A DNA stretch of 64,000 nt from Nemertoderma westbladi (Eukaryota > Animalia > Xenacoelomorpha): contig JAUCBJ010009084.1 in NCBI GenBank assembly GCA_032718475.1, positions 4,645 through 68,644 of the forward strand. The letters run 5' to 3'. Shown piece by piece: positions 5,096-64,000 of the stretch. The number at the start of each line of letters is the position of its first letter. Within the stretch, counting starts at the first letter, position 1. The notes below the pieces were generated by a model. The model did not search any database. It saw nothing but the letters and a program-made list of their open reading frames with translations, and had not been told where the DNA came from. The position numbers and the translations under genes are program-made.

Positions 5096-5096
5096 G

Positions 5097-15932: not shown

Positions 15933-16271
15933 TAATAACCTAAACTAGCACCGGTATTGCACTGAGATAACTGAATTGGTATGATTACTGCCAAGTGGCT
16001 ATATTGCACGGTTGGCCTTGTTACTCTACCTAATCGATGCCTTTCCCCCCTCTGATTGGTTGATACCCTTGTTGGCGCCCTTTGGAGTGTTCCCGTTCAC
16101 TCCACCTATTCTCTCTGGGTTAGGGGTTTGGCCCCTGACCCTCTATTGTGTGCTTCCTTCCCACTCTTATTGGGATGGCACGAGTTGGTTAATTATCCAA
16201 TCTCGTGGCTCCCAATATTGCTTATCGGCTTATAACTTTATGGGGTATTAGCGGGATTGAATAAGCTAACA
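15933..16271 (-). repeat. 3' LTR of element B (probably truncated at its distal end)
   Basis: Matches 25861-26199 with one visible mismatch. Begins TGTTAGC on the minus strand. Confidence 0.9.
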
Positions 16272-16293
16272 CTCCCCCCCATGCTATCTTCCC
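16272..16293 (-). promoter_or_regulatory. Polypurine tract of element B
   Basis: Minus strand GGGAAGATAGCATGGGGGGGAG lies immediately before the LTR start TGTTAG. Confidence 0.8.
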
Positions 16294-17170
16294 GGTAAGA
16301 AGATAGCATCAACCAAAAAGTGCGCTACAATCCCGCTGGATCCTGATCTAGTATCGGGTGTGGGGTGGAATTCTTTTCTCTCGGAGCCGGCTTTCCAGGC
16401 CGCCCCCTATTGGTATGATAACGCTACCCTGTGTGCCTGGCGTCTCATTTCGGGCCGATCGCGCTCACCTCTCACGCAACTTTTGTTTCCCCAACACTTC
16501 CGCCCTATCTCTTCTTCACTCCCACCCTAACTCTCTCACACTCGGACCTCCTCGCCCCTCACTCAGCCTCTTACTCCCCCCCCCCCACACTAGAATTGCG
16601 TCCGCACTCTATCCGCACTCCGCACTATTATTCCGTCCCTCAACCTCACTTCGACTGTCTCTTCCCTTCTGACGAATCTCCCCCCCCCTCTCGTGCCGTC
16701 GCACTCAAGAAGTGTGAAATTGTCTGGTGTCTCGTCCATGGTGCCATAGTCAGTTTTCCCCCAGTCCCAGTAGCTAATTGAGAAAGGTTGTATGACTATA
16801 GTACTTACTCCGAACATATATATTTCTAGATTACTAATTACTACGTACGTACATACAAATTGCACTTATATGATTATTTTGCATTAATTAAATTTGTACT
16901 TAATAGTTCGTACATCCCACGCGGCGCCTTCCAGGCGTACCACGTCCAAGTCCCAGTCTCTCTCCCTCAACTCTGGGAACCTATCTGTTCCTCCGGGGGT
17001 AGTTCCCCCTGGCGTCCTCTTCCCTGGGTCATTTCTTGGTTATCACCGTTCCTCTGGCATCATCCGCTTTCTGCTTTCTGACCTTCGCCGCCACTTCCTT
17101 GCTGATCCCGGTCGTTGGCTCCTTGGGCGCTGGTGTTATTAGTGCCCGATATCGCTTCGCCGGTGGCCCC

Positions 17171-18130
17171 TCAGAGTGGCCCGGTTGTCTCCCTCTGGTG
17201 GCGTCCCATAGGATGATTGAGCAAACTTATCATCATCCAGTCCTCCTGCAGGATATATCGCTTCTGATATACCTTTATCGCTCCCCTGCGGAACTGATAT
17301 ACCTCCTGCTTTCCCGGTCTCGCTCCCCACTTTAGCGAGTTCGCTAGTTCTGCTCCGTATTCTTCCTTAAACTTCGCCCAATCCATTGGTTTGTGGCATG
17401 CGAGCCCCAATAATTGGCCCATCGCCACCGCCCCGCATTGGCCTGTGTTTTCGACTACCCCCAACCCATCCGGTGCCGTCATAGCCATAAAGACTTTCTG
17501 CATATCCAGGAGGTTGGTGGCGTCCGGACCGATGATTCTCTCCGCATCCTCGCGAATCGCCGATCCCACTTTCGTCGTCGACTTCTCTCTTACTAAGACT
17601 TGTACCGCTTTCGGTAACCGGTTTAGTTTCGGCCCGTCCTTCTTCCCATACGTCCCTAGGTCGAATAAGAAGATGTCCCCATTTGGCGCGGCCAAATGTA
17701 GGAGTATGGTCCTGGCCGACCCCGCCGTTCCTCGTCTCGAACCCGCCTCGTCTTCCACGGTTCCCTCGTCATCTAGGATCATATATCCTCCTCTGTTGAC
17801 GGACTCTATGAATCTCTTCCAGTCCTTCCTCGGTGATTCCCTCGGGTATTTCGGAATCCCGAACTTCGCCTCGTCCCCTTTCACCACATAGTGGAAGTGT
17901 TGGAAGATCGCGTTGTCCAGCGACGGGGTCCCGTAGGTCACGACCAGCCGCTGTTTGTGCACCTCCCGGAAGTGATCCTGCAGCGCTCGTGCCGCGTGAC
18001 TCCTTTCCAACCTCTCGTAGTATCCTCTCGTCTTCTCTTCCGGATGCCTCTCGGTGAAATCCACCAGTATCTCCTTTCCTCCTGACTCCGCCTTTCTCTT
18101 TCTGATCAACTTACTCGCCATTCCGAACAT
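17171..18130 (-). CDS. Accessory DEDDy-type 3'-5' exonuclease domain ORF, C-terminally deleted copy in element B
   Basis: Motifs YMILDDEG, LLHLA..IFLFDL, LP..V..LV.EKS.TKVGSAIREDA and YQKRYILQED match the WRN/Mut-7/EXD exonuclease pattern. Homologous to 59074-61159 up to SLLN. Confidence 0.7.
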   Translation of the reverse strand: MFGMASKLIRKRKAESGGKEILVDFTERHPEEKTRGYYERLERSHAARALQDHFREVHKQRLVVTYGTPSLDNAIFQHFHYVVKGDEAKFGIPKYPRESPRKDWKRFIESVNRGGYMILDDEGTVEDEAGSRRGTAGSARTILLHLAAPNGDIFLFDLGTYGKKDGPKLNRLPKAVQVLVREKSTTKVGSAIREDAERIIGPDATNLLDMQKVFMAMTAPDGLGVVENTGQCGAVAMGQLLGLACHKPMDWAKFKEEYGAELANSLKWGARPGKQEVYQFRRGAIKVYQKRYILQEDWMMISLLNHPMGRHQRETTGPL

Positions 18131-18619
18131 TCACTCGCTCACCTGCAAGGTGGTGCCTTACCAAGGCGCAATACAGATGAGTGATGTATCTAGGATGTTC
18201 TGTACAGTTCGATAATGGCCTATTTCCTACTCAACTGCGCCTTTTAACCTAAAATATTCCTAATTAATTTTGAAGCTAGTAAATGAGCGTAATTTACAAT
18301 TTCTGTCCGTTACTTTTATTATGTTCTAGAATAACTTCCCTTGTGTTGCCACTATTTTACAATTTTCAGCCCTATTCTATTTATTTTTATCTATTTACTT
18401 TGATTCTACTGTCCTACTACTTACTACTGCCTATGGATTATTCTATTCTCTAATCCACATTCTGGCCTACTCTGTATTCTGGCCTATGCAGTACAGCAGT
18501 ATGCGTCGTGTGGCCACACGATTTATCCAGCTGTACTCATATGCCCCCCTCTCTCTACTAACTGCTAACTAATACCTATATCTATATCCCCTTTTACCTC
18601 TCTCTTACTCTCTCTCTTC

Positions 18620-19440
18620 TTATTAACGGTACTTACGTACCCTCTAACTCTCTAACTAACTATCGGTACTACGTACCCTCTAACTCTCTAACTAACTATT
18701 GGTACTACATACCTTCTAACTCTCTAACTAACTATCGGTACTACGTACCCTCTAACTCTCTAACTAACTATCGGTACTACGTACCCTCTAACTCTAACTA
18801 ACTAGCGGTACTACGTACCCTCTAACTCTCTGACTAGCAGTACTACGTACCCTCTAACTCTCTAACTAACTATCGGTACTACGTACCCTCTAACTCTAAC
18901 TAACTAGCGGTACTACGTACCCTCTAACTCTCTGACTAACTAACGGTACTTACGTACCCTCTAACTCTCTACTACTACTACTACTATGATCGGCATGCTG
19001 CATTGCAGCTGCATTTCTAAGAATGCTGTGCCGGCTTGTCAACAAAATTGCACCGCCACAACTCCCTATCACCCATGACATTTGCTAGATCATCCGCATC
19101 TTTAAGGCCAGTGTCCTTTAAGATGCGTCTCAAGAAAGTCATGGGCTGTCCACCATGCTTATTCACTCCATGAGGCTGCCAAAGTACAAGCTCTAACTCT
19201 CTAACTAACTATCGGTACTACGTACCCTCTAACTCTAACTAACTAGCGGTACTACGTACCCTCTAACTAACTCTCTAACTGGCGGTACTACGTACCTCCT
19301 AACTAACTAACTAATGGTACTTACGTACCCTCTAACTAACTCCCTAACTGGCGGTACTACGTACCTCCTAACTAACTAACTAACTAGGTACTACATACCT
19401 TCTTACTAACTCTCTGCCTACTAACTGCGTACCTACCATG
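18620..19440. repeat. ~35-40-bp tandem repeat spacer with palindromic core GGTACTACGTACC
   Basis: CTAACTAACTATCGGTACTACGTACCCTCTAACT is repeated. The homologous array is at 61610-61895. Confidence 0.9.
18972..19190 (-). mobile_element. 5'-truncated RTE-like non-LTR retrotransposon 3' end with (TAG)n tail
   Basis: The minus strand reads LVLWQPHG..KHGGQP.TF...ILKDTG...DLANVMGDRELWR, typical of an RTE/RTEX C-terminus. A (TAG)5 tail follows, and CTCTAACTCTCTA is duplicated at 18959-18971 and 19191-19203. Confidence 0.75.
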
Positions 19441-19598
19441 TACTATTTTTTTTATTTTATTTTATTATTTTGTTTGTGGGAAGGGCGTCTCGCCCTCAAT
19501 CCTACCCCCCTCAGTCCAAAACTTGGACGACTAAACTTTTCTCTAACTCTGCTAAGGTGCCCCTTCTAATAGACAGGTAACACCTCTGCCCGCACCTT

Positions 19599-22256
19599 TT
19601 ACGGATCTAACTCTTCCATCCCAGTCCAACCTGTTGGACAACTCAGCGACCCAAGGGGTGATTCCTCCAGCAGGCAACTCTCCCACTGCCCCCCTATAGG
19701 TTCTCTAATTCTTCGCTCCGCTCTCCTTGTCAATTCGATAGGTGGTCTTTTCTCCTGTTTTTGCAAATGCTGTCTGTTATTTATGTTTCTGATCTCGTGG
19801 TTGTCCCTTGGCGGCAAAGTGCCACCCTTCAACGTGTCACCCGGCGGTATAATGCCGCCCCTGTTCTTCTCCTTAATCTTAGATGCCACCTCTGCTGGCC
19901 TCCCCCTTAATATGTGTGCTGGCATTAAAGGCTTCAACGACCCCCGTTCGTCCTTCGGTATACACGATGTCTGCCCATGTAATGCCCCCTCGCACTCTGT
20001 CAGTTCCGCGTGCGTACGCAGCACGCCTCCTACTCTCCCGGCTCCTTTTTCCACCATGTGTTTATTCATGGGCTTATCTGCCCCTTGTCTGATCGTCTCA
20101 CATCTTCTCCCTTTCCATCTTGTATTTTTACTCGGCTTCCCCCTTGTCGGTATGCTTCTCAACCGGACCGGCGTCTCTTTCGGACGCTCCTCTGGACACT
20201 CCACCGGACACTTCTCCGGTTTGTCCTCCCGACACTCCACCGTCCGCTCCTCTCCATCTCCATACCGATACTTGCTGGGACCCTTATTCCAACCCATCGT
20301 CTCTAGATCTTCTGCATCCATACCATTCTCCTCCGCCCACTCTCTTGGTGTTGCTTCTACCTCTAGCTGTCTACCACTATTGCCCATCTCTGGCCTCTCC
20401 TCTATCTCGTCAGTTCCTGGCACCATGCATCCTGAACTCTCGGACACATGGAATGGTATATTACTCTTAATTGGGCCTGTCAGTGTCCACCCGAATGGTG
20501 TTAATATGGCCACCGGGTCACTCTGCTTGTCTTCGCCGAAGACCGTTTGCATTCTTTCGTGGGCCGTTGGGCAGTCCATGCCTACTATGATGGACACCTT
20601 CCTAACGTCCACGTCTGGAATTGAGAAGTCAATGTCGTCCAGGAATTTATACTGCTCGACCTCGATGTTGGTTGGCCGCCTGGCATTGATATTAATTGAC
20701 TCTATCACTTGAATGGGGTCGATGGTTGCCCCATAGTCGCATCCTGGTGCCACTGCTGCAATTGCGCACCGTCCTGTTCTCATCTCAAGGATCTCATCTT
20801 TGCTAGAGATGGTTGTTACCGCCATCCTGCTTGGCCTCGTTCTCAATCCTATCTCCTCGGCCACCCATTCCTCGACTAATGTGAAGGCAGCTCCACTATC
20901 AACCAGCATTAGTGTTGTTACTGATCGATTGCCTTCCCCGATCACTCGTACTGGTACTACTCCAAGTAGCACCGTTCCTCTCTTCTTCGCCCCTACTGTG
21001 CTCGTCGCCATCGTTTGGCCTCTCCTTTGACCAAATTTCATTGGCTTCTCCTTGCACTCCCTTGCTCTATGTCCACTCATTACACATCGCGAGCAGATTT
21101 TATTGCTGAACGCATAATCTATCTGATCTTGCCTAGGTAGCGCCTGCCAGTACCTGCAGTTCATAGTTTGATGAAGCGCATTTGCGTGTAGCTGACATTT
21201 GCTCTTTGGGTCGTAGCCCTCTTTATACAGTGCATTGCGTATCGCAGTTGCGTTCGTACCAAAGTCCCTACTATTCTTATTGTTTGGGTTTTGCCTATTG
21301 GACGTACTGGGGTTATGTTTATTCGTGTTATTATTGTTTCCCTGTCCGTTCCATGGTGTTGTCTTATCCTCGGCTAGCTGTGGACTTGCAGTCCCCTGCG
21401 TCGCTGCATATGGCAATGATTGCCTGAGTCTCGGTAATGCGTTCGATGTGTTGTGCTCTGGTTTCGGTCTATGGTAGTCTGTCTTCGGTCCCTTTCCCAG
21501 GCTGTCTTCGCTATAGACTGGGTCAGTTATTAGTTCAGCCTCGTAGTTTAAGAAGTTTGACATTTCTTCTAAACCCGGTTCCGCACCCTTCTTATCTCGA
21601 GTGGAGAAGGCGATTTTCCTCCACTTGTTGCGCAGCCAGTTTGGTAGTGCCTGCGCTATCGTGGTGATGTTGTTGGACGCATTGAGCTCGTACGGCGCGT
21701 CTAGCGTCTTCAGCACGATTAGCGCCTTTTCGACTTTGTTAGCGAACGTCTTAATGCTAACGGGATTATCCTGTAGGCCACCCGATGTTATGCCTCTCAG
21801 CGTCTGCCTGATGATCTTGGCCGGGTGCCCGTATTCCCTATCCAGTGCCCGCCATGCTGTCGTGAAGCCGCCCTCTATTCCTTGATATTGCCTCACGATG
21901 TCGTATGCTGGGCCTCCCGTGTACACTTGTAGATACTTTAGGCACTCCGCCTGCGTCAAGTTTTTTGTTAGTATTTCGTTACTATACATGCGCCGAAACT
22001 GTAGATATTCTTCCGGCCTGCTCCCATCGAATTTGAATGGTTCCACGGGTGGTAACTCGATCCTCGTTTTCAACGCATCGATCAACGTGGCCATCCCCAT
22101 CGCCTGCGCTTCCAGTGGATTCGATGGGTGCTGCATAGTTTCTCCTGTCTGGTGCGTTCCGTCTGTCCTATTTCTTGACTTTCTCTGACTTGGGTATGTC
22201 ATCGGGGGTAGCGGCCCCCTCCATATGTCTGTGTCACACGACCTATTCTCATCCAA
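19599..22256 (-). CDS. Gag core, zinc knuckles and aspartic protease of element B, fused by deletion to an integrase C-terminal remnant
   Basis: Motifs PFKFDG..EY..F (DUF1759-like), CQLH..H...C and CSRC..GH.AREC, VLLGVVPV, LVDSGA, TPFGWTL. The ORF then jumps to ELTECEGALH..LMPAHIL.G, which is integrase-like. Confidence 0.85.
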   Translation of the reverse strand: MDENRSCDTDIWRGPLPPMTYPSQRKSRNRTDGTHQTGETMQHPSNPLEAQAMGMATLIDALKTRIELPPVEPFKFDGSRPEEYLQFRRMYSNEILTKNLTQAECLKYLQVYTGGPAYDIVRQYQGIEGGFTTAWRALDREYGHPAKIIRQTLRGITSGGLQDNPVSIKTFANKVEKALIVLKTLDAPYELNASNNITTIAQALPNWLRNKWRKIAFSTRDKKGAEPGLEEMSNFLNYEAELITDPVYSEDSLGKGPKTDYHRPKPEHNTSNALPRLRQSLPYAATQGTASPQLAEDKTTPWNGQGNNNNTNKHNPSTSNRQNPNNKNSRDFGTNATAIRNALYKEGYDPKSKCQLHANALHQTMNCRYWQALPRQDQIDYAFSNKICSRCVMSGHRARECKEKPMKFGQRRGQTMATSTVGAKKRGTVLLGVVPVRVIGEGNRSVTTLMLVDSGAAFTLVEEWVAEEIGLRTRPSRMAVTTISSKDEILEMRTGRCAIAAVAPGCDYGATIDPIQVIESININARRPTNIEVEQYKFLDDIDFSIPDVDVRKVSIIVGMDCPTAHERMQTVFGEDKQSDPVAILTPFGWTLTGPIKSNIPFHVSESSGCMVPGTDEIEERPEMGNSGRQLEVEATPREWAEENGMDAEDLETMGWNKGPSKYRYGDGEERTVECREDKPEKCPVECPEERPKETPVRLRSIPTRGKPSKNTRWKGRRCETIRQGADKPMNKHMVEKGAGRVGGVLRTHAELTECEGALHGQTSCIPKDERGSLKPLMPAHILRGRPAEVASKIKEKNRGGIIPPGDTLKGGTLPPRDNHEIRNINNRQHLQKQEKRPPIELTRRAERRIREPIGGQWESCLLEESPLGSLSCPTGWTGMEELDP

Positions 22257-22314
22257 GGGTCTCGTTGTTCTTGCTCCTATCGGGGTATATTGTTGATATT
22301 GTGATGGGGGAATG

Positions 22315-25300
22315 TCACCCTGTCCCCCCCCCCACCGGTATGTTTGGTACTGGGGTTGATGTTAATATGTTGGGGCCCATACACCTATCCGCAATAATTC
22401 CCCCCTCCCCTGGGTATATGTTATGTCCCTGCATGCTGTAGTCATACTGCTGTGCTGGTACCGGTATAGGCCTATCAGCTTCTGGCCTACTCGCCGGTAT
22501 GTATTCCGCGACTTCCGGGTTTAATCCCGTTGTCCACGCCATCCTATCGCCTACATTGCCTCTCTCAGTATGGCCTATGGTATGTGCAGTAAGGCCTACA
22601 GTATGTCCTACAGTCTGCATGTGTCGCTCGGGATCGAAGTTTATTCTTCTCGAATAATCCTCCCCGCGGCTACCGTATTCTCGATCGATAGGTGTATTCC
22701 GTCGGAAAGTTTCTCTTCGACCCCCCCCCTCTACTGTTCTCATCTTCGTACCGGTACATCGCGTACCCCTCCATCGGCGCGTAGTGCGCCTCGCCGGGTC
22801 GCATCTCTCCGGGGCGACGGCAATCTCCCGGAGTCCGACCCCACTGACTCTCCGTTCTCATCTCAACTACCGACGGCTCGCTATCCGTCCTCGCTCTTCT
22901 ATCGTTCGCGGCGATACCTCTACTACTGTCTTCTCTTCTTCTCCTTTCAGTGGAGTATTCCCGCTCGTGAGATCTCTCGTCGACCTCCCGGTTAAACCCC
23001 ACTGTTCTTCTTCCCTCTTCTGATCGGGCTCGACGCTTCGTCCGCCCTCTTACGACGTCAACCTGTCTCTCTCTGCTCGGTCGCACGCCGCTGGGGATAC
23101 TCGCAATCCCCCTATTACTTTCCGTCGCCGGTTGTTGCGGTTTACCTATTTCGGCCCGCGCATTATCCGCTGACGGCTGTGGGACACTCTCTGCCCCCCC
23201 CCTTTCGCCGCTAACTCGCTGTTGTGGGGTTCTCGTAGCCCCCCCCCCCCCCCACTCGCCACATCTAACTTCGCTACTCCTCACCCCGCTACTATATCCC
23301 TCTCCAGTCGACACATCAACCCTACCGCGGTCGGGTCTATTCACCCCCGCCTCTCCCTCTGCTATTGCGTGGCCTACCAGGCCCTCTACTCCCTGCCTAC
23401 CAACTATGTGGCCTACCAGGCCCTCGCTGGGTCTACCTAACCCAGCCACTCCCTGCCTACCAACTACGTGGCCTACCAGGCCCTCGCCGGGTCTACCTAA
23501 CCCAGCTACTTCCCTGCCTACCAACTACGTGGCCTACCAGGCCCTCGCTGGGTCTACCTAACCCAGCTACTTCCCTGGCCTACCAACTACGTGGCCTACC
23601 AGGCCCTCGTCTGTCTGGCCATACACGCCCGACGTGTTTACATTAATAGCACCCGTATTGGAAACGGAATTAATTTGTTCGTTCGAAATAAAATCATTTG
23701 AATTATCTTGCGCGACTACACTATCTGAATTATTTTGTAAATTCGGGCTCGCTGAATTATTTAAGTTATTTAGATTATTTTGTGTTATTGCATTACTTAA
23801 ATTATTTTGTAAGTTCGAATTTGGGTTATTACTTTGATTAATTGGATTATTTTGCGTAGCTACATTAATATTAGAATTATTTTCTACATTAGTATTAGGA
23901 ATGTTCTGATTTAAATTTAAATTACTACCACTAAGTAAAGTATTTCCTGCAATAAAGGTTTGATTAGAATTGTCCCACACGGTACTATTAATATTAACCA
24001 CGTCTACTGTACCATCATCATTATTACCCCCCCCCCCCCCCCCCCCCCTCCCGTACGGTCACACCAGTTTTGAGTCTGTCGTGCGGTCCCTGTAAGTGGG
24101 GTATTAATAAATGTATCCACGGCCCCCGGCTCCTCAAAAATACTCGAGCCAGCCTCGCTCTCAGACTCCCCCATCTGCGCCAGTTCCACCTCACGCGTGT
24201 GTACAGCTTCACACTCTACGAGTTTGTCTCGCTGTTTCTCCAATTCTTTTCGCTCACGCTCCACTTTTGCTATTTTATCCATAGCCTCCCGTTCGGTCTG
24301 CTTGGCCAATTCCACCTCTCTCCTAATCCCCTCCCTTCGCCTCGCCTCACGCGCTCTATGCTCACTCTCCTCCCTCACTTCACGCTCTCTGCGTTCACTT
24401 TCCTCCTTCGCTTCACGCTCTCTGCGTTCACTTTTCTCTCTCGCCACACGCTCTTCTTGTTCCTTCAACTCTATTTCCTCATACTCCCTGAGGCTCCTCA
24501 CGGCCCTTTCGGCCCTCTCTCTTATCTCTCCCATCGACGCCATTTCCCTCTCCATCAGCACTCTCCCTTCCTCTAGCCATCTACCTACTTCTCTATTACC
24601 TTGCACTGCTAGATTGAGACGATGCCTAGCGTCTATCTCTCTCACCCGTCTTTCTTTTGCGGAGGATGTAGCAGACTTATCGGTTGTGGAGGATTCCCTC
24701 CGCCTTCCCGATCTACTAGCTTTCCCCCTCCTCCCGGAACTCCCTCCGACCGACGAGACCGAATCCGCGGGGTCAGCCTCGGATTCGCCCTCCTCAGGTC
24801 TGTTCCAACCCACTAATTTTACTCCCCAGGCATCGACCAAGTATGGCCCTATGTACACTGACGCTACGCTAGGTTCCATACTCCCACATTCCCATAGTTC
24901 AAATAGTTCGCTGGCAACCCCTTTTGCTCTCTCCTCGGCTAGTTCTCTCTGCCCAAAACGCATTAGGTAATTAAAGTGTCTATCCGACTCACCTAGTCGT
25001 TTCCTCAGTCTCACCTCGTCTATCTTCGCCCCTTCCTTCTTAGCGTCCTTTAGTAGTCTTTGGGTCGCGTTGTAGGCCCGTCGGAGTCGATCAGAAACCC
25101 CGACGTCCTCGTCGCCGATCTTTCGTCCGTCTCTCCGGGTCCGACGTCGTACCGGCGGCCCCACCATCGCCGTTTCGGCGGGCCGTCCGTCGCCCTCGGC
25201 CTGTAGCTGGCCGGTGACATCGGTAGCGATGTCTCCTTCATCTCTCTGCATCCGGGGTCGCACCGTCGGCCCCACCGTCGCCGTTTCGGCGGGCCGCTCG

Positions 25301-25560
25301 TCGCCCTCAGCCTGTGGCTGGCCGGCGACACCGGTGCGTCGACCCCCGTCCCGTGTCGACTCGTCTCCGCCTCCCTCCGTCTCGCTCTCTCTCTCTCTCG
25401 GTTCGACCTCGGGTTCCAGGCCCCCCTCGTCCTGAACTGCCGGATGACCCGTTACCGATGGGTCCGGCGTTGTGGGCCTGTATCGCCTGGTTGCGGCCTC
25501 GCGGATCGTTAGCTCTTCGTCCGGGGTCCGCGTCGGTGTGGTGTCACCTGACCGACTCAT
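22315..25560 (-). pseudogene. N-terminal gag region of element B (coiled coil, Asn-rich and repeat segments), frameshifted
   Basis: Consecutive minus-strand ORFs 24004-25560, 23567-24001, 22670-23524 and 22315-22743 lie between the 5' LTR and the gag core. Breaks fall near G-runs and repeats. Confidence 0.7.
23365..23610. repeat. ~60-bp tandem repeat containing hairpin GGCCT-ACC-AGGCC
   Basis: The core occurs at about 23371, 23410, 23470, 23531 and 23593. Confidence 0.9.
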
Positions 25561-25858
25561 CTCTCTTCTGCAGATTGGTGACTGGTGGTTTAGCTAGTTT
25601 TACAGTTTGACTAGGGCGGCAGCTCGATTTAGTTACTGCCGAAGGGTTTAGTTACTGTGACGGGATCCAAGAGGGATCCCGGTTTATCCGGTTTTAGTTC
25701 ACGCGTCCCCGCCGTGTATAAAGAGTGAATGAGTTCTGATGTTTGTCGTATATAATATGATAAGTGGATATAGATACAGATATAGATATGGGATATATTG
25801 TTGTATATGGAAGGCGGGATATGGTAACTAAAGTCCCGGTCCTTCCCTAGCTAAACTA

Positions 25859-26199
25859 TGTAATAACCTAAACTAGCACCGGTATTGCACTGAGATAACT
25901 GAATTGGTATGATTACTGCCAAGTGGCTATATTGCACGGTTGGCCTTGTTACTCTACCTAATCGATGCCTTTCCCCCCTCTGATTGGTTGATACCCTTGT
26001 TGGCGCCCTTTGGAGTGTTCCCGTTCACTCCACCTATTCTCTCTGGGTTAGGGGTTTGGCCCCTGACCCTCTATTGTGTGCTTCCTTCCCACTCTTATTG
26101 GGATGGCACGAGTTGGTTAATTATCCAATCTCGTGGCTCCCAATATTGCTTATCGGCTTATAACTTTATGGGGTGTTAGCGGGATTGAATAAGCTAACA
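25859..26199 (-). repeat. 5' LTR of element B (shared part; may extend to ~25656)
   Basis: Direct repeat of 15933-16271 with TG...CA ends. CCAAT and TATA-like motifs are present on the minus strand. Confidence 0.88.
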
Positions 26200-40262: not shown

Positions 40263-40362
40263 NNNNNNNNNNNNNNNNNNNNNNNNNNNNNNNNNNNNNN
40301 NNNNNNNNNNNNNNNNNNNNNNNNNNNNNNNNNNNNNNNNNNNNNNNNNNNNNNNNNNNNNN
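40263..40362. other. Assembly gap (100 N)
   Basis: A run of N; the true length is unknown. Confidence 1.
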
Positions 40363-46283: not shown

Positions 46284-46460
46284 CAAGGTAAGTTTGACAT
46301 TTGGACATTTCGACATTTTGACATTTCGACATTCTGACTTTGTTGATTTATTTGTACCGGTTAGGGTATATATATACTATATATACCAAGGTAAGGTTGA
46401 CATTTCGACATTCAGATACTTTGACGTTTTATTACCCGTACTTGACGCATATAATAAGAC

Positions 46461-49400: not shown

Positions 49401-50160
49401 TAACGCACCGACGGTTCTCATCAGGATAATCGGTCGACTTCATTATCGACTCCGACGAGAATGGCGACGCATCGAGTACCAGCGTGAAGAGGCCGGCGGG
49501 CTATTAAAACTCACCGACGTCTATCAACTGATTTCGCGGGAGGCCGTTATCGAGACTCGATCGAATTATACTGATCACCATATCGCGGCAGAAGGGATAG
49601 CTATTTCTGCGCCGAATCGGACTAAACCGTTTCCGACGAACGCGAAAGCCGTTACCTACGCCACCCCTACTGAGACTTCTAATGTTCTGATGCCTATCGG
49701 CACCACGCAGCCACGACAACAGTTGCCGGCAGACTTTGTGGGATGCTCATACTGCGAGCGGAACGGCAGAAACCATAGCGGACATAAACTTCGTGGATGT
49801 CGCGCTTTTAAAGAGTTAGGAATCGAGGAGAGGAGACTCCAAATACGATCTTTAGATTCTTGCTGGAGATGTACGAAGCCAGGACACGTCTGGAAGGATT
49901 GCCCGAGCGATGATACATGTCCTCTGTGTGGACGTAACCATGACGCGTTACTTCACACTACTAGTCATACTCCGACCAGACGCTTTCGACGAGAGCATCC
50001 AGATAAAGCGGCTAGATGCGACGCACTATATAAGGACCGTGCGCCGCACGAGATCCGTACGTTTTATACGGACTGCATGGATCAGTCAGGATCATCGGAC
50101 GAGTACGAGGAGGAAGACGACACTTTCTATGTGCATGCAGGTGAGGAACAGCCATCGGTA
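46461..50160 (+). pseudogene. gag of element D
   Basis: Coiled-coil N-terminus, QQPPKFSGN..W, EKFNYL, and knuckles GCSYC..H..C, CWRC..GH..DC and CPLC..HDALLH. Several stops and frameshifts. Confidence 0.88.
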
Positions 50161-53100: not shown

Positions 53101-55059
53101 CCGGACATTTCGCTGGATGTTCCCCGCTATGTCTCACCAGACGTCTCACCAGACTGTTCACCGGACGCTTCACCAGACTCTCTACTAGACACTCCACTAG
53201 AAGACCCATTGGAGCGGACTTATAGAGACTTACCAAATTTGACTTCTTTGGACGACAAAGGTGTGGCCACAGCGATCACACTCCGGTCAAAGAAGGTACT
53301 TGACTTACCGCCAGCAGGTAAACGTGTGACTAAAGTTAGGAAGCTTACAGGCTCACAGGAACACACTGACACTGTAGAGTTGAAACCGTTACTGCCAGTC
53401 GACACATTAGGTGCGGACGGTAAAGGTAAGACCGTAGAGATTGACGTACTTGGGGACTCAGACAAACCTACCGGAAGGCCCGTGGGCCTACCAAGTCCAG
53501 ACAAGGATCCACAATACGACTATACTTTACCTGATGACGTCACTATCACTTACGTTGACCGGATAGTAAACCTAACTAGATCATGGACTGACGCGTGCCG
53601 CAAGTTAGCATGGCTCAAACGTTTGAGACAATATGCCAGAGGCAAACGCGACTTTCCTAGAAGACTTACCTTAAAGGAAGTTGGTCATTGTGAAGTTGAT
53701 ATCATTCGCCATTATCAATTGCGATATTTCGCACGAGAGTTCACAGCGATCAACCAAGGTAAACAGATTAAGTCTTCACCGATTTTGAGTTGGAGTCCTA
53801 TTATTTACCGGGGTTTACTTTGCCACAAGACCAGACTCCAAAACATCGACTTTGCACTTGACTTTAGGTATCCTATCATCATACCGCAACACCATGAATT
53901 ACAGTGCGCTATGATACTGGACGCACATGTACAACTCAAACACGTGGGTAGACACCACTGTCTATCACACTTACGTTTGAGGTTTGTACTGATTAGACCT
54001 AGTAAGGCACTGAGTTCGGTAATGCGGAACTGTATGATTTGTAAGAAGGTGCACGCAAGGATAGGACACCAAGAAATGAGTGAACTACCACTAGCGAGAT
54101 TACAGGCATTTAGACCCCCTTTCACTGAGACAGGGATAGACTGTTTTGGACCCATAATCGCGAAACGCGGAAGGGTACAGGTAAAACGTTGGGGATTGAT
54201 CTTCACTTGCATGGCCAGCAGAGCTGTCCATATAGAGCGTGTGACAGATTTGACCACCAATGCCTTTATCCTAGCCTTACGGCGATTTATCGCTAGACGT
54301 GAATTGGTCAAATCCATTTACTGCGACCAAGGGACAAACTTTGTGGGTGCACGGAACGAAATAACCAGAGCTTTGAGAAAGTTGGACCAAAACCAGATTT
54401 CCGAGGAACTACGTCCTCACTGAATTGTTTGGAATTTTAATACTCCAGACAGTCCGTGGAGAGGCGGCGTTTGGGAAAGGCTGATTGGTTCAATTAAGCC
54501 AGCTATGGCTAAAGTAGTACCGACGCAACACATATTGACAGACGACCAACTGACAACGTTGTTAATAGAAATCGAAGCGATTTTGAACACTAGACCGATC
54601 GCTTTGATCCCAGACAATAACGACACACAGTTTGCCTTGACACCAGCGCACCTGCTTATGCAGGCGCCGACGACATTGTTGCCCATTTCGGTACCCGTTG
54701 ATAGCGACGGATATGGCAACAAAGCTTGGAAAATCACTCAATTGCTTGCAAATAAATTATGGGAAATATGGCAGAAATATTATTTGCCCTCTATTTCAAC
54801 CAGAACCTCTTCGTATCTAAACAAACGATGTTTGAGACGTGGTGACCACGTTTTATTGGCTGAAGCCAATCTGAAAAGACGGTTTTGGCTGACTGGAGTC
54901 ATTTTGACCACGCACCCTACATCTGGTGTAATAAGGACAGTTACTGTAAGGACTATCGACGGACGTACAGTAGACAGACCTGTACAACGTCTCGTACTCC
55001 TTGAGGAGACTAGAAACGAGACAGGAGACTACAAATCTCCACCCAATATTAGTAAATAG
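50161..55059 (+). pseudogene. pol of element D: protease, RT, RNase H-like, integrase, DUF5641-like C-terminus
   Basis: Motifs ILDSAS; CDVEAMFHQ and FYVDDGL; LHSFSDSS; FVANR and NPADIASRG; HHCC zinc finger, GIDCFGP, CDQGTNFVG, WERLI; W..G.I..T. Compared with A, the start of RT is deleted near 51372. Confidence 0.92.
52790..53180 (+). repeat. In-frame 12-bp minisatellite encoding (xSPD)n between RNase H and integrase
   Basis: Repeated TCACCAGAC-type units give the peptide SPDVSPDCSPDYSPDYSPE. Confidence 0.8.
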
Positions 55060-58000
55060 AGATGTGGGACCTTTGTTGGCCGCCACATAGACTTACCGTA
55101 TTTTAGTAATTTAGTATTTTGTATTACTGTATGTGCATTTGTAATCCTCTTCACTGTAGATAGAGACAGTATCACATATGTATCACATATGTATCACATA
55201 GGAGCGGGATCGTGTGTACAGAAGGAATGGAATTCCACTTGGAACCCACAAGTGAGACAATTTTTCAAAAATTATTAGACAAATCCATTTAGTTGGATTT
55301 AAATTTAAGAAAAATGATTCTCCAGTGAATGCGAATTCTAGAATACAACTAGATAAAAATTAAAATTGGGGAGGACAAGAGCGGATGGAAGGCTTGCGAG
55401 CCTACCGATAAATTTTTTTTGGAAAAGAAAACCGGCCTTGTTCTACGTAGTCGTGTCTACTATTATTTAGACCGAATTAATTCTCGACTGCATTATTTCT
55501 TTGGGAATGTAGTTTGGGAAATTAAAAGGTGAGTATTTTAGACTCGCGGCTAGTTTACCCGAAATTCGTTTTTTATCGGCACAATTTTGGATTAGGAGCC
55601 AGTGCGAAATCACGCGAACCCGAAGTCATTAGGCAAATGGGTAAGGGTTTTAGAGCAAAGTTGAGCCGAAAGCCGACAAAACTCTAAGTCTCCTCACATC
55701 TAACCTCTGTTTGTGCTTCCTCTAGTAGACACACTACATATACAGGGATTCACGCAGGAACAGGAGCACCAGGCACCGTTTAATCGCTATGGAGCCAAAA
55801 CTTTAACGTGTTTGAAGTGGAGAGTATGGCTAGGAGTACAGCCAAGCTCACTAAGTCCAAGGCGGATCCAAACATCACGCGACAGCGATTGGACGCTTAT
55901 AACAAAAGAGAGGAGGAGTTACGCGCGGAGTTCAAAGCATTGTACCCCTACGATGCGTTATGCGACGCCAGCGACGTTTGCGAGAACCCCGAGCTGATAT
56001 TAGCGCGTTGCCCAAACCACCAAAGTCTGCATTACCAAGAAGGCGGTCGTTTCATTTCCCGGTATTCTAGAACCGCAGGCAACTCGACGTAGGAACCACC
56101 GACAGCTCAACACCGAAGTCCGAGTCCAGTTCGATCCCGACCACCACCCAATCGTATTAGAGGATGTGGACGAGCCCGTTCAACCAAGGATTAGGAGAGC
56201 GAGATGAAGGAAGGAAGGCTTGCGAGCCTACCGATTGGATATTATATTTGGATATTATATTTGGTATTGTATTGGACGTTACGTTTGGATGTTGGTTTTG
56301 GAGGAGCGAGATAGAGAAGGAAGGCCTGCGAGCCTACCGTTAGCAATTAGTGCTCAGGAGAAGACATCCAGACCAGCAGGACGAACTTTTCAGATCGTCA
56401 GGAGGACACTTTAAGACTTATTTGAAAGATTTTAGCGCCTTATGTTTATTTTATTTTTGAACTGATTTAATTTGGTGGAAGTTTATTATGTATATTTACA
56501 ATATAAAGATTTATTGAAAGAGTTGAAATTATTTGTTCAATTTGTTTTGATTTAATTTGTTCTGATTTGTTTAAATGGAATATCTTATTGCTCCAATGTG
56601 AGGCCATGGAATACTCTAGAAGATTCTAGTAGATTCTATGTCCCAGATTTAGTATATAAAGGGCTGGTTTGCATTCGGTTATCACTTCTCTTCACTACTA
56701 CTCCTTGTAAAACATTCTCACACTTAATTCATTTGTTAACTTTAGTTTCTTGTTGAAACTTTGCAATTCTGTTTTGATAAAGTCGTAAACTGTAAATATA
56801 ATACAAACTTCTGAACATGTTTTTCTGTATTTGTCCAACCTTGGGACAGTAAAGCATCAGGAAAATGGCCGCCTAGACCGTTAGGCCATCAGCAACGCAG
56901 GGAAAGGATGTCCACAACACGCTAGCACCCACATTAGCTTAGACCGCGCACCCCCTTCGCCCTTCGGAATACTCCACTTGCCATGCAGCGCCCGCTTTAT
57001 GAGGAAGGTAAGACTTTGTTTGACGCCCTTGCCCGACGTAAGACCTAATAGATCAGGGTAAGCGTGACACCGTCCTGGGACGCCGCAAATTTAGGATCAA
57101 ATAACTATATTTTAGGCAGAAACCCCCCCCCCCCCCCCTTCAGTAGTACGAATCCCTGGGTTACCTGTATACCTCACAGGTGCGAATTATTGCCGTTCGT
57201 CAGTACGCGAGTACACATTAGGTACGGACAGCATATGTTCCATAATTTAGTGATTCGCAGTACTGACTGTTTGGTACCGGTTCGCTTTGTAGAATATACA
57301 TTAGTACCCCCCCCCCCCCCCCCCACCTGCCTGAAGTTGGTTATTTGATCAGGCAAGGAGCATTTCTGCTACCGGCACACCGCTTGGCCTAGGGAGGTTT
57401 TTATTAATATCCTACCACGCCTTGCCACATACTGATAGGTATTGCTGCTAACTACCGCGGCAACAAAGTTCTAGAATTAAATTTGTATACCAGATCAGCT
57501 AACGTATGGTAGCAATTAATCCCTATTTCTTATCTTACAACCAGAATCTGGTATTTGTGCCGATCACGGGTGTAGTTACTAACACCGTGGTTGCCCAGTT
57601 GAGTTGTGGATAGGAAGGAGAGAGCTTTGACGTTATTTGTAAGTATAAAGCTCTACAAAACGCGACTAGCTTATTTTAGTAGCTAGCGCACGGTATTATT
57701 TCGGTCAGAGAATTACTAAAACCTAGTAAATGATATACACCAAAATTGTTTTATTGTAACACACCCACACACACACGCCCTAAAACATATTTACCCTTAG
57801 AGTTTCTACTAGTTATAGCGCACTTTAGATTACTTTTAGGTATAAATTATCTGAATTTGTAAATTAGGATCAGATATTTAGTTACGGCAAGAAGGAGTAT
57901 TTCATTTCGTTATTAAACTGTTGTTTTCTGCGCAGCAGTATTGTTACATTTAGGCACGACCTTTTAGACTGATTTCGTACAGGGGGATCAGTTATCGTTA

Positions 58001-58527
58001 CATTAAGGCACGACCTTTTTTAGGCTGATTCAGACAGGGAGATCAGTATTGTTACGCTAGGGCTGTAACCCACCTAGCTCGTATATAAACCATATAAATC
58101 ACACCGCGGCAAGTTACTGTATTTAGGACTGTCAGCGATAGTTAGGATTCGCTGCGCGGGGCTTGTTTTCCCGTGAGTTTGGTCTGTTACTGTAACTGTA
58201 CATCTGCCATACCGGTTAGAGGACAGGTATCCTTTTGTCTAGTTCGTAGGCATTAGACCCGCCCACGTACATAGAATAGACACCAGGCTCTGCTCCTCGC
58301 CAGTAGTAGTTTGTGTATTGTATCTGTTTGCTTAGATATCCTGGACTGGGATTTGTTGTCAGATACTGTACGAGCCCGTTTCATTACTAGAGACTTACAG
58401 TAAGATATATCATTACTAGGATCTGGTAAGCGGTATACTACTGGACTTTACGGATAGAGATATTATATAGCTTCGTATTAGTAGATTGTAGGCTGTAGGG
58501 TAGTCCCTATCGTAGAGGACACAACAG

Positions 58528-59086
58528 TCATATTTATAACTTCTATCCCACTCCATGAGATAGAGAATCTTAAATGAACGTCAAAAGAACAGGTAACACT
58601 TACATTTATAGAAGTAATCAGCTGTTATTAGCTATGTCTTTCCGCTGGAGATGGATGAATTTTGATTGCGTTGGAACACCCCCTATCTGTGGCTGTCTGA
58701 GTGGAGAGATAGGTAGCCTATCTCCCTGTTAATATTGCTGTGTTCTAGAATATTTTTTATAGTTTCATCGTATTGCCAAAGTTACTAGAGCTGAAGTTAA
58801 CTCATAATACAATAATTCACCTCAAATATCTCAGCTATTTCATGAACATAATGAAGTATTAAAGCCATGTCAAAATCCTTGGTATTTTTCTGTAATAATT
58901 TATCAAAATATCCTGTGATTCTTTACTATAACCATATCGATTTTAATATTTATAACTTCTATAACTTCTATAACGAGATAGATAATCTTAAATGAAAATC
59001 AAAAGAACAGGTAACACTTATATTTATAGATGTAATCAGTTGTTATTTGCTACGTTTTTCCGCTGGAAATGGATTAATTTTGATTG
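58528..59086 (-). repeat. Diverged inverted copy (~1.3 monomers) of the 415-bp satellite
   Basis: The reverse complement of monomer motifs is present, e.g. AGAACAGGTAACACTTACATTTATAGAAGTAATCAGCTG. Confidence 0.9.
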
Positions 59087-59103
59087 TTTTGATTGAATTT
59101 TGA

Positions 59104-61159
59104 CTTCGTCGTCCATCCAGTCGCACTGGCGTCCGTAATGTCCCCGAAAGTTACACTTCGAACATCGGTTATGCAACCGTGGACATGCCCCCATCCTGTG
59201 GCTCGACTCGCGGCAATAGAGACAACTAGTCCCTTTCTGGAACCGGTACAAACACCTGCTTTCCTGATGGGTCTGTCTCCCACAGTAGTCACAGCCGAGC
59301 ACCAATGTCTCCCGCCCCACGTCGTCTTTCGTCCCAAGCGATCTCCGCGGTCTGTGGAGTCGCTGGTAAGCGAATTTCCGGACATTAGCGTCCCTACTAG
59401 CGTTCCTACTACGTCGATCTCCTTGCCCCTCTCGGGCATCGTCTCCCCGAATACTACCCGGGGTGCCGTCCCCGGTTGCTCGCCCAACCTGATGGTGCTC
59501 CCCGCGAAATCCATTACCGGGTCCTCGTGCACCCAGGCCCGCTTGCCGGGTCTATCCCAGAAGGCCCTCGCCCCACTGGCCGTTACCACCCTCCCGCCAA
59601 CCCAGTCTGTGTCCGAGCGGCCGATCCTCTCGATGGGCGGCATCTCTCCGAACTCGTCGTCGTCCTCGTCCTCCTTTGGGAGTGGCTCCAGTCCCGGTAT
59701 CCCGGTGGACCCATTATGTCCCTTCCCGCCTTGGCTCTCGCCCATAGCTCTCCATCCCTCTAGCTCCCCTAGCTTCCTTAGTGGCTGGTCGCCCTCGGCG
59801 CCTGCTGGTATGGGCATTGCTTGCAATCCCGACGTCGACTGTTTCGGTGACCCCACCGTCCATCCCAGTTCTCGCCCTAGAGACTCCCCCGAACTCCCTG
59901 ATGAAGTCCAATGAAGTTCGTCTAAGCCCGCCTGTTCCTCGAAGCCGTAGCTCTGTGCCCTAGCTTCCTCCTCCCTTTCATCTGCTTCTCTCCTCTCCCG
60001 TCTAGCGACTTCTTCCAGTCGCTTCGCCTCTCGTCTATCCGCCTCTAGCTGCTCCCATCTCTGACACGGCGTATCCACCTCCCTGTCTACCAGATGTTGG
60101 CTGTTATAGTACACCAACTCGCCCTTCAGCCCCGGGTTGTCTACCAGACCCTCGAAAGCCGTCTTAAAGGCTCTTCTGTAGCTTAGGGGTGATCCCGATA
60201 ATAGGAATGCCGTTGGTTCCCTCTCGATAACCACGGTCATGAATAGGTTAAGCAAACCTATCATTATCCAGTCCTCCTGTAGGATATATCGCTTCTGATA
60301 TACCTTTATAGCTCCTCTCCGGAATTGATACACCTCTTGTCTCCCCGGCCTCGCTCCCCACTTCAGCGAGTTCGCCATGTCTGCTCCGTACTCCTCTCTG
60401 AACTTGCCCCAGTCCATCGGTTTGTGACACACAAGCCCCATTAACTGGCCCATCGCCACCGCCCCGCAATGTCCTGTGTTCTCTACTAGTCCCAATCCGT
60501 CCGGCGCTGTCATAGCCATGTAGACCGTCTGCATGTCCAGAAGGTTGGGGGTGTCCGGACCGATGATTCTCTCCGCGTCGTCGCGAATCGCCGATCCCAC
60601 TTTTGTCATCGACTTCTCTCTCACTAGTGCTTGCACCGCCTTCGGCAACCGGTTTAACTTCGGCCCGTCCTTCTTTCCATACGTTCCTAGATCGAATAGG
60701 AATATATCCCCATTTGGCGCGGCCAAATGTAGGAGTATGGTTCTGGCTGACGCCGCCGATCCTCTCCTCGAACCCTCCTCGTCTTCCACGGTCCCCTCAT
60801 CGTCCAGGACCATATACCCTTCTCTGCTGACGGACTCTACGAACCTCTTCCAATCCTTCCTCGGTGGAATCCTTGTGTACTTCGGAATCCCGAACTTTGC
60901 TTCGTCTCCTTTTATCACATAGTGGAAATGCTCGAAGATCGCGTTGTCCAGCGACGGCATCCCGCTGTTCGTGCACCTCCCTGAAATGGTCCTGTAGCGC
61001 CCGCGCTGCGTGACCCCTCTCCAACCGTTCGTAGTATCGCCTCGTTCTCTCTTCCGGATGCCTCTTGGTGAAATTCACCAGTATCTCCTTTCCTCCTAGC
61101 TCCGCCTTTCTCTTTTGCACTAGTTTGCTTGCCATCTCGAACTTTGCCCGATCGCTCAC
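59104..61159 (-). pseudogene. Accessory ORF: DEDDy exonuclease, coiled coil, low-complexity linker and three CCHC zinc knuckles (two frameshifts)
   Basis: ORFs 60797-61159, 59074-60960 and 59036-59320. A 17-bp deletion relative to B occurs at ~60963. Knuckles CDYCGRQTHQESRC, CLYCRESSHRMGAC and CSKCNFRGHYGRQC are present. Confidence 0.72.
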
Positions 61160-61609
61160 CCGTTGGGTGGTGCCTTACCAAGGCGCAATAGGGTGAGTGA
61201 TAGGTTAAGGTGGTTTATTTCAGTTCGATGGCCTATCTCCCTCTGGATTACTAAGTTAATTAGCCTATTTGCACTGCTTGATTTTGTACCTAAATTGTAA
61301 ATTTTGTCAGTTACTTTTATTATGTTCCAGAATTTTCTTGCTACTGTTACCATAATTTGTCAATTTCTTAGCCCTATTCTATTTTAATATTTTAATTTAA
61401 TTCAATCCTACTATCGTGCTATTACTTACTATTGCCTATGGATTATTCTATTTCATAATCCACATTCTGGCCTACTCTGTGGGCTTGTGCAGTACAACAG
61501 TATGCGTCGCGTGGCCTACACGATTTATCCAGCTGTACTCATATGCCCCCCTCTCACAACTAACTACTAACTAATGCCTATTATATATATACTAATCTAC
61601 CTCTTACTC

Positions 61610-61895
61610 TTACTAACCGGTACTACGTACCCTCTTAATAACTTCTAACTCCACTAACTAACTAACCGGTACTACGTACCCTCTTACTAACCTCTAACTC
61701 CACTAACTAACTAACGGTACTACGTACCCTCTTACTAACTAACTTCTGCCTACTGACGGTACTACATACCCTCTTACTAACTAACTTCTGCCTAGTGATG
61801 GTACTACGTACCCTCTTACTAACTAACTTCTGCCTACTGATGGTACTACGTACCCTCTTACTAACTAACTTCTGCCTACTACTGCGTACCTATTA
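61610..61895. repeat. Tandem spacer repeat with GGTACTACGTACC core
   Basis: About 41-bp units; homologous to 18620-19440. Confidence 0.9.
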
Positions 61896-62035
61896 TGTAC
61901 TATTCTAAGACTTTCTCTTCTTATTTTTTTTATTTTATTTTATTTTTAATTGTGTGGGAAGGGCGTCTCGCCCTCAATCCCACCCCCCTCAGTCCAAAAC
62001 TTGGACGACTAAACTCCACTAAAATCCACATTAAT

Positions 62036-64000
62036 TCAAGGTGCCCCCTCTAGTAGACAGCATTTCCCTACAGCCCTCCTGTAGGTCTTTCTGTCTTTCG
62101 CACCTATCTTTCCACCTATTCGCACTTCTACCGATCGGACTCTTCCGTCCTCATCGGAGTAAGTGCCCACAACTCTCGCCAACCGCCATTGGTTGTTGAA
62201 GATGGTATCGTCCATGACGATCACCAGATCACCCTCCTTTAGCTCTCTGTTCATGTTCCTCCACTTACTTCTTTTGTGTAGTGTGGGCAGATATTCCTCG
62301 ACCCACCTCCTCAAGTACTCTGCGCTTATCGCCTTAGCGACTTTCCAACTCTGGCGGGAGTGTATGTCACCTAGTCTACACCCCGCATGTCGATTGTCGC
62401 TGGCCTTTCCATTAGAAAGTGACTGGGCGTCAGCACGTCTAATGACTCAGGGTCATGATTCTCTGAATATAGCGGTCTGCTATTAATGATACCCTCACAC
62501 TTTGCTAGTACTGTCCTTAGTACGTCCTCTGTAACCATGTGGGTGTTCATCAACTTCGTCATCAGACGCTTCGAACTACCCACTAATCTCTCGACGCATC
62601 CTAGGGTATGCGGAGCATACGGTGTCCTCCTCTCCAACTTCACTTGTCGCCTTCTCATGGCCGCCCTGACTTCCTCCCCTTCCAGGATATCCAAGGCCTC
62701 TGCCATCTTGTTCTCCGCCCCCACAAAGTTGGTCCCGCTGTCAGAATACAGTACTGCGATCGTCCCATCTTTGCGGTCTCTAAGTCTTTCTAAAGCATTA
62801 ATGAATGCTGATGCGGTTGCATCTTGGGCGAGTTCTATTCCTACCGCCCGCGTGTTGTTACATACGAAGATGATACCGTAGCGTTTCTCCATGTGCCGCA
62901 TCACCTTAATCTTTATCGGCCCGAACATATCCACACCGCAATGCGTAAATGGCGGGTCGTGCTGTCTTACTCTACTGGCCGGTAGTGGCGCCATTTCCTG
63001 TATGGCCCGTTCCTTCTTCGCTCGTCGGCGGGTCTGGCACTGCCCCACTACCGCCTTTACCTTCTTTCTCAGCTGTTTGACCCAAAAGGTCCTCCGTATC
63101 TCCGTGAGGGTTCGGTTGGTGCCCCCGTGCAATATCGACTTATGGGAGTCCCATATAAACTGGTGGACTATCGGCGATTCAGTAGGTATGATGATGGGTT
63201 TTGGCGGTATTACAATACTGTTGTTGTTCAATACCCTCGAGTTCATTACTAGAATCCCGTCATCATTAAGTTGTGGTGACAGCGTGATCAACTCGCTGTC
63301 CCGTCGGAGATGTTGTTGTTTACCGACGCGTTCCACTTCGTCGCCGTAGTTCTTTCTCTGTTCGTAGCGGATGATTGCTTTGTCGCTCCCTCCAGATCGA
63401 TGGTTCTTCCAACTTTTACGTCTTTGTGGACTCCCTTGAGGAAATCTCAGAAGGCTCTCCAGTACGCCACTAACTTCTTGGTCTTGTACCAACTGGAGCT
63501 ATAGCTGAGGAGTTTATCTGTCGGGTTATCACACAGTTCTCCCGGTTTTGGTTGCACATCCCTTATCTCCCTCACCATTTGGCTGTATATCTCTTCTCCC
63601 TCTGAATCTCCCTCTTCTTCCTCTAACGCTCTTTCTCCTGAGCCCGGGTCCACCTTTCTCATTGGTGGCCAGGCTTCCTTATCGCTCTGAAACTGCGGCC
63701 CATGTTGCCACAATATCTCCCTTTTCAAGAAGGTGTGGCATGCCACGCCCCTCGATAACAAGTCCGCTGGAATCTCGTCCGTTTGGCAGTAGTGCCACCT
63801 TTCTAACTCTGTGGTCGCCCTTATTTCGTCCACCCTATTTGCGACGAATATAGGGTATCTCGTCCTCTCGTTGTGTAGCCAACCGAGCACTACCATGGAA
63901 TCCGTCCAGTAGTGTGTTTCCACTATGTTGGGAATAGCGTCCACTAAGTAGGCTGTGGCCCTAACTCCTAATCTCGCAGCTGTCAACTCGAGTTTCGGAA
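62036..64000 (-). pseudogene. C-terminal pol of element C: Pao RNase H-like, integrase and DUF5641-like tail
   Basis: Motifs YWTDSMVVLGW, FVANRV, PADLLSRG; H..HGG..C; GVDMFGP; YSDSGTNFVG; VERLV; RWVEEYL..L..R.KW and WRLARV. Frameshifted. Confidence 0.93.

Follow-up and report, generated by a model that had tools for sequence, protein, structure and literature searches.

A divergent Bel/Pao retrotransposon family with a selected third gene that resembles DEDDy exonucleases and probably carries a zinc-knuckle array

Third open reading frames (ORF3s) of the DEDDy exonuclease type have been described in the bdelloid rotifer LTR retrotransposons Juno and Vesta and in Terminons; these are of the DEED type, have no coiled coil and have no shown activity (Rodriguez et al. 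2017, PMC5408684). They are the captured DEDDy genes to which a preliminary description of the present locus had referred, and two further papers (PMC6338049, PMC6431247) deal with the rotifer exonuclease case only. Among cellular enzymes, Trypanosoma brucei RNase D (TbRND) has a DEDD domain followed by four C-terminal CCHC fingers, which raise RNA binding, cleavage and U-tail trimming (PMC7797062). The Belpaoviridae are given a length of 4.2-10 kb in the ICTV profile, where the only third genes named are env-like (PMC8742986); the paper of de la Chaux and Wagner likewise names env-like third genes only, and the word “exonuclease” occurs in it 0 times (PMC3118150). The preliminary description had known of no exonuclease-plus-knuckle architecture in BEL/Pao elements, and our search, which covered the main texts of mostly open-access literature, also found no Bel/Pao carrier of an exonuclease or of a knuckle array.

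The window analysed here, a 64-kb stretch of DNA, consists of a 417-bp satellite array into which several LTR elements have been inserted (Table 1). The element of interest, copy A, is the 3′ part of a minus-strand element; it continues beyond the window edge at 64000 and, at its other end, breaks off in satellite DNA at 59087 without a 3′ LTR. Neither of its LTRs is in the window, and its reverse transcriptase (RT) lies outside it. At the end of its pol, Pfam searches identified Integrase_H2C2 (E 9e-10) and then DUF5641 (E 2.5e-23), the integrase being the last enzyme encoded. From 2275 candidate proteins, 68 integrase relatives were retrieved at E up to 1e-20 (29-38% identity), all of them long proteins; PF05380 (Pao family) is listed on 64 of the 68, the other four carry PF03564, PF18701 or integrase families only, and PF01612 is listed on none. 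By these matches copy A is a divergent Bel/Pao element, and the Bel/Pao context proposed at the outset was further borne out by a second copy, copy B, with a DUF1759 gag and a protease. ORF3 lies approximately 0.9 kb past the integrase stop on the same strand, in the env-like position that had been claimed for it. An env reading of ORF3 was rejected, as the gene shows no env likeness and no transmembrane segment (best 19-residue hydropathy of 1.46 in copy A, whose far 3′ end is missing, and 1.07 in copy B).

Table 1 Features of the window (64 kb). Motifs, domains and signals of ORF3 and its spacer refer to copy A unless stated otherwise
Feature	Position	Strand	Remarks
417-bp satellite array, 48 or more units	10300-46000 and 58528-59087		higher-order period ~3.3 kb; several Bel/Pao insertions
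Copy B, non-autonomous element of the same family as copy A	15933..26199	-	
ORF3 of copy B, open 319-codon frame: N-terminus and whole predicted exonuclease domain	17171..18130	-	
100 N	40263-40362		
417-bp satellite units, inverted relative to the main array	58528..59087	.	copy A terminates there
Three CX2CX4HX4C zinc knuckles	59293-59252, 59224-59183, 59164-59123	-	
Gly/Glu/Pro-rich linker with acidic run, in the exonuclease frame	59380..59952	-	
Arg/Glu-rich charged helix, single alpha-helix or coiled coil	59953..60060	-	24/36 residues charged
Predicted DnaQ/DEDDy 3′-5′ exonuclease domain	60205..60879	-	
ExoIII-like YQKRYILQED	60300-60271	-	
ExoII-like KVGSAIRDDA	60603-60574	-	
LLHLA and IFLFDL	60735-60688	-	
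ExoI-like YMVLDDEG	60816-60793	-	
Candidate catalytic residues	D 60804, E 60798, D 60579, Y 60288, E 60276	-	residue after the last E is D
N-terminal piece of ORF3 from the shared ATG, ~57 codons	60964..61135	-	severed by frame change near 60960
Conserved hairpin directly before ORF3 start, 25-nt invariant run, two presumed splice-donor-like words	61150..61200	-	
Conserved non-coding block, two predicted hairpins	61415..61565	-	copy B counterpart ~18415-18560
Short tandem repeats in the pol-ORF3 spacer, common to copy B	61600..61880	.	
3′ end of Bel/Pao pol in three frames: tail of Peptidase_A17 region, integrase, DUF5641	62036..63998	-	Pfam and relatives

Other elements were noted in the window. 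At approximately 46400-58500 (plus strand) lies another Bel/Pao element, the integrase of which is 36% identical to that of copy A; the roughly 3.4 kb downstream of this integrase gave no exonuclease match and held no such ORF, so ORF3 is family-specific. A short decayed reading near 55700-56150 in this neighbour could be a different accessory gene. Within a decayed gag-protease-like element (approximately 1200-10300) there are two inverted palindromic arrays of a 15-bp unit (7500-7840 and 8350-8770), and a pentapeptide-repeat Pfam match in them was discarded as spurious and caused by the arrays. An inverted 620-bp pair (1230-1849 and 41114-41755), 82% identical, possibly represents LTRs of related elements.

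Copy B is bounded by LTRs of 339 bp that differ at a single site, and a purine tract adjoins its 3′ LTR; both features agree with what is expected of Belpaoviridae (LTRs of 0.2-1.2 kb). Its DUF1759 gag and protease are present, and RT, RNase H and integrase core are absent. The copy is young, with a fragmented gag and an open exonuclease ORF, and its gag-protease region spans about 6 kb. Since copy B measures 10.3 kb despite missing most of pol, complete elements, of which none occurs within the window, are probably longer than the range given for the Belpaoviridae. The last pol codons, the spacer and ORF3 follow one another in the same order in both copies, and the two ORF3s are 87% identical over 237 codons of shared domain, after which the sequences diverge. 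The charged helix and the knuckles of copy A were not found in the ORF3 of copy B. The gag of copy B has a single CCHC-pattern match, unlike the knuckles of copy A in sequence, and an origin of the knuckles from a duplicated gag nucleocapsid is not supported by this comparison. Following the exonuclease in copy B, the segment 16271-17216 contains decayed coding-like pieces, one of which includes a basic word resembling an NLS, as well as an ORF of 49 codons; it matches nothing elsewhere in the window and may correspond to a 3′ region of the family that copy A has lost.

Comparison of the two ORF3s over the 237 codons gave a dN/dS of 0.095 (dS 0.68), which identifies ORF3 as a selected gene. 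Third positions account for 73 of the 105 differences, the N-terminal piece alone gave a ratio of 0.089 over 55 codons, and the other reading frames gave 2.1-2.2. In four public DNA runs of one organism, 25,186, 10,198, 10,288 and 158 contigs mapped to 58400-64000, covering 30 of 30 bins in three runs and 29 of 30 in the fourth. In run X1 the knuckles had a summed depth of 58-62 thousand, compared with 24-56 thousand for the exonuclease and 24-79 thousand for the integrase, bearing in mind that contig depth is not copy number, that runs X1 and X2 come from one sample and that short contigs do not link the parts. Among the variant rows listed (40 of 991), 8 of 11 ORF3 sites fell at third positions by hand count. 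ORF3 is a real gene under purifying selection and a regular part of the family, found at the same place in copy B and in many variant contigs. A family variant that lacks the whole exonuclease domain and keeps the 3′ part was also observed, with contigs joining 59997 and 61118 in three of the four runs. As copy B has transposed recently without knuckles and this variant exists without the exonuclease, neither part is needed in cis, which is what would be expected of a trans-acting accessory protein.

The spacer between pol and ORF3 contains two conserved elements. The hairpin that immediately precedes the ATG has z values of -2.4 and -2.3 in the two copies, with 3 of 200 shuffles as stable in each; the two words within it resemble the splice-donor consensus. 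Further upstream, the non-coding block is 92% identical between copies A and B, compared with 64% for the adjacent spacer and 85% for the coding sequence, in which synonymous sites differ at 45%. It starts with a purine run, and the same two hairpins are predicted in both copies (z -2.3 and -4.2). No Rfam family fits the block, and the spacer gave one chance-level match. The block might act as a signal in packaging, in internal priming or in the expression of ORF3, which may be made as a separate protein with the help of these conserved upstream elements.

All of the exonuclease motifs quoted in the preliminary description were located in a single stop-free minus-strand frame (61074-59077), and the stretch rich in Arg and Glu was confirmed downstream of them. 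The three knuckles were recovered as well, against a mean of 0.004 and a maximum of 1 in 2000 shuffles. The gene is broken twice in copy A: the first break, which severs the N-terminal piece, is a short deletion relative to copy B, and the second, estimated from codon usage, falls near 59360-59400 and places exonuclease and knuckles in different frames. All parts of the proposed exonuclease-plus-knuckle gene lie on the same strand, but neither copy has exonuclease and knuckles in one frame. Because the frames differ in a broken copy and copy B has no knuckles, a single protein can only be inferred, and we consider that exonuclease, helix, linker and knuckles probably form one polypeptide. It is unlikely that the knuckles are instead encoded by a gene of their own, or that they stem from a piece of gag of another retroelement nested here. 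Such an arrangement would agree with the frame difference, with the missing knuckles of copy B and with the fact that none of the contigs among the matches listed bridges the second frame change. However, the coding signal is uninterrupted where it changes from the frame of the exonuclease to that of the knuckles (best score of 32.7 with a switch versus 14.6 without), no Met occurs in the knuckle frame from its upstream stop (59551) up to the knuckles, and contig depth is similar over knuckles and exonuclease.

Standard homology searches with ORF3 were negative throughout. Neither copy matched a Pfam family at E up to 10, the cut-off of PF01612 not being reached, and the PDB sequence search found nothing at E up to 10. 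Two word-seeded protein searches confirmed none of their 2097 and 2414 candidates, respectively, with the E limit at 0.01. A HMMER search against 1.84 billion representatives (50% clusters) at E up to 0.001 returned one match (E 1.4e-4), which was rejected as a repetitive hydrophobic singleton without exonuclease motifs. With tblastn four plasmid records were obtained (E 6-9), a phage collection gave no match, and motif pattern scans yielded 156 metagenome stretches and 59 viral ones, none of which was confirmed. Pairwise BLAST against a bacterial WRN-like protein gave an E of 12, and the hhalign profile-profile probability was 0.6%. An unguided AlphaFold2 model, built from two sequences only, reached a pLDDT of 32, at which level the Foldseek search with it (nothing at E up to 0.001) is uninformative.

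Three other lines of evidence point to the DEDDy family. The ESM Atlas language-model search placed both ORF3 copies at PF01612 clusters with a score of 0.94, a level to be read against the 4-10 in 100 shuffled or reversed proteins that reach 0.9; in the best clusters PF01612 is carried by 34-38% of members. For copy B the best named cluster was “Werner syndrome-like exonuclease” (186 of 256 features, 30 of 30 named matches), and in the case of copy A the PF01612 clusters came just behind three fungal ones without a name. A WRN-like profile was then used, built from bacterial sequences (75 extracted, 26 kept after removal of short and over-70%-identical ones); as a control, a 24-sequence alignment from the same set retrieved WRN in the PDB at E 1e-31. 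Over the 287 ORFs of the window the two ORF3s ranked first and second with this profile (E 0.057 and 0.22), and their whole-domain scores were reached by 0 of 300 shuffles (Z 5.2 and 5.4). Of 478 natural decoy windows, from which 118 ORFs matching exonuclease profiles had been excluded, none reached the ORF3s at two gap settings and two reached copy A at a third. An RNase D profile, the other of the two compared, fitted less well (Z 1.7-2.0). In an unguided MAFFT alignment, D, E, D, Y and E of ORF3 fell on the five catalytic columns, which occurred in 1 of 200 shuffles when either D or E was allowed, while 5 of 200 reached four exact residues. Of 24 invariant reference columns 8-9 were matched, a count that does not stand out from shuffles (mean 6.7, maximum 13), and identity to bacterial WRN-like members is 14-23%.

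A model guided by 24 WRN-like rows reached a pLDDT of 68, with 85-91 over most core elements and low values at three insertions. Structure searches with it gave 29 DEDD matches at E up to 0.001, and a second comparison had a best Z of 11.8 with an rmsd of 3.6 over 163 aligned residues; its top rows include the WRN and Pol I domains, and TbRND ranks first in Foldseek. Since the model was fed those rows it is circular, and its RNase H-like topology shows compatibility only. Four helices of the unguided model coincide with guided-model positions. The ORF3 domain very probably has a DnaQ fold and is likely to be a very divergent WRN-like DEDDy 3′-5′ exonuclease. The family assignment is supported indirectly by language model, whole-domain profile and catalytic columns, but not by Pfam, PDB, HMMER or profile-profile comparison. 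The likeness to the WRN/Nibbler/EXD1/Egalitarian group put forward earlier survives in that the WRN-like profile outperforms RNase D, but none of the results singles out Nibbler, EXD1 or Egalitarian as closer to ORF3 than the remaining DEDDy proteins. That ORF3 is selected and yet not of the DnaQ family, its motifs being a chance likeness in an alpha/beta domain, seems improbable: the failure of every standard search and the Atlas background speak for it, whereas the convergence of the three lines of evidence on one family and the four coinciding helices speak against it.

Whether the fold retains catalysis depends on the third motif, which is atypical as had been noted, with YxxxE(D) in place of YAAxD. 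D, E, D and Y are exact, the ExoII position is Asp in both copies, and the fourth acid is Glu followed by Asp; exonuclease activity may for that reason be altered or lost. Invariance of the five residues between the copies is not proof of catalysis, as at 87% overall identity it would be expected about half the time. On this basis ORF3 might have kept the fold with weak or dead catalysis and, together with its knuckles, act as an adaptor that binds RNA in the manner of EXD1 or Maelstrom, although we regard this as doubtful. The Glu that replaces the ExoIII Asp, preceded by two insertions of about 12 residues (hand count), would suit such an adaptor, and Maelstrom and EXD1 are described as inactive DEDD derivatives that retain RNA binding (PMC5408684). 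Nevertheless, all four positions are acidic and the Tyr is kept, and the rotifer ORF3s also show a D-to-E change, at a different position.

Hosts tail or target retroelement RNA. Our best explanation, which we hold tentatively and as somewhat short of probable, is that the ORF3 product is an RNA-binding 3′-5′ exonuclease that acts on RNA ends and counters host silencing. The exonuclease would be joined through the charged helix and linker to three RNA-binding zinc knuckles; by analogy with TbRND, these might grip single-stranded RNA so that its 3′ end is passed on to a two-metal site. The targets would be host-added tails on element RNA, or small RNAs aimed at the element, and the outcome would be protection of the element from host silencing. 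A viral precedent may be seen in the DEDD nuclease of arenaviruses, ExoN, a suggested suppressor of host immunity (PMC7968707).

A less favoured possibility, to which we give modest weight, is that an active exonuclease works inside the replication particle, recruited on the genomic RNA by the nucleocapsid-like knuckles, and that it proofreads or trims the ends of cDNA or of RNA primers in an element of unusual length. It draws on the same fold evidence as the anti-silencing explanation. The length of copy B without RT, RNase H and integrase core, from which complete elements would pass 4.2-10 kb (PMC8742986), fits it, as do the WRN and Pol I domains among the top rows of the guided model and the link drawn between nidovirus ExoN and genome growth (PMC7968707). 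However, ORF3 is separate from pol, and none of the 68 related Bel/Pao polyproteins matched either exonuclease profile (best E 0.42). Together with the neighbouring Bel/Pao element that has no exonuclease, these polyproteins indicate that replication does not generally need ORF3.

Extended further, the anti-silencing explanation would describe an abundant lineage of long Bel/Pao elements encoding a tail-trimming DEDDy enzyme with a three-knuckle RNA reader, convergent with TbRND and expressed from a structured RNA element inside the transposon, that would remove the tails added by the host or trim small RNAs aimed at the element; in this complete form we consider it speculative and unlikely. 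If true, it would be an animal retrotransposon-encoded enzymatic suppressor of RNA silencing, from a branch of exonucleases for which a set of 1.84 billion proteins holds no detectable relative. The architecture offers a testable handle, through RNA tails, small RNAs and cDNA ends, on animal retrotransposon enzymes directed against host silencing or serving replication fidelity.

The exonuclease ORF3s of rotifer LTR elements had been reported without a sign of function. The presence of a probable exonuclease ORF3 in the separate Bel/Pao family, under strong purifying selection and probably with an RNA-binding array of knuckles, is an argument that elements gain genes of this kind again and again and benefit from them. 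The two cases share a non-env gene after pol on the same strand, with a DEDDy-type domain that is predicted in the present gene, one D-to-E change and family-specific presence. They differ in that the carrier here is a Bel/Pao element, that the change affects the fourth acid and not the position altered in the rotifer DEED set, that a charged helix and three CCHC knuckles accompany the domain where the rotifer proteins are said to lack coiled-coil domains and are not described with an array of knuckles, and that strong profile homology in the rotifer proteins contrasts with none here; purifying selection, unlike in that report, was measured for the present gene. As in env-bearing Bel/Pao elements, a third gene follows pol ahead of the 3′ LTR, but ORF3 has neither transmembrane segment nor env likeness (PMC8742986, PMC3118150). 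With the WRN-exo family (PF01612: WRN, EXD2, Nibbler/Mut-7 and plant WRN-like proteins) it shares the order and spacing of ExoI-III, the KVG...D word and the Q..Y helix, but it lies below all family cut-offs, has three insertions and departs from the family at ExoIII. Like TbRND (PDB 7c42, 7c45) it probably combines a predicted DEDD exonuclease with a C-terminal CCHC array in a single protein; unlike that cellular mitochondrial enzyme, which has four fingers and a 28-residue linker, it has three knuckles about 320 residues after the domain and resides in a mobile element (PMC7797062). The likeness between the two is probably convergent.
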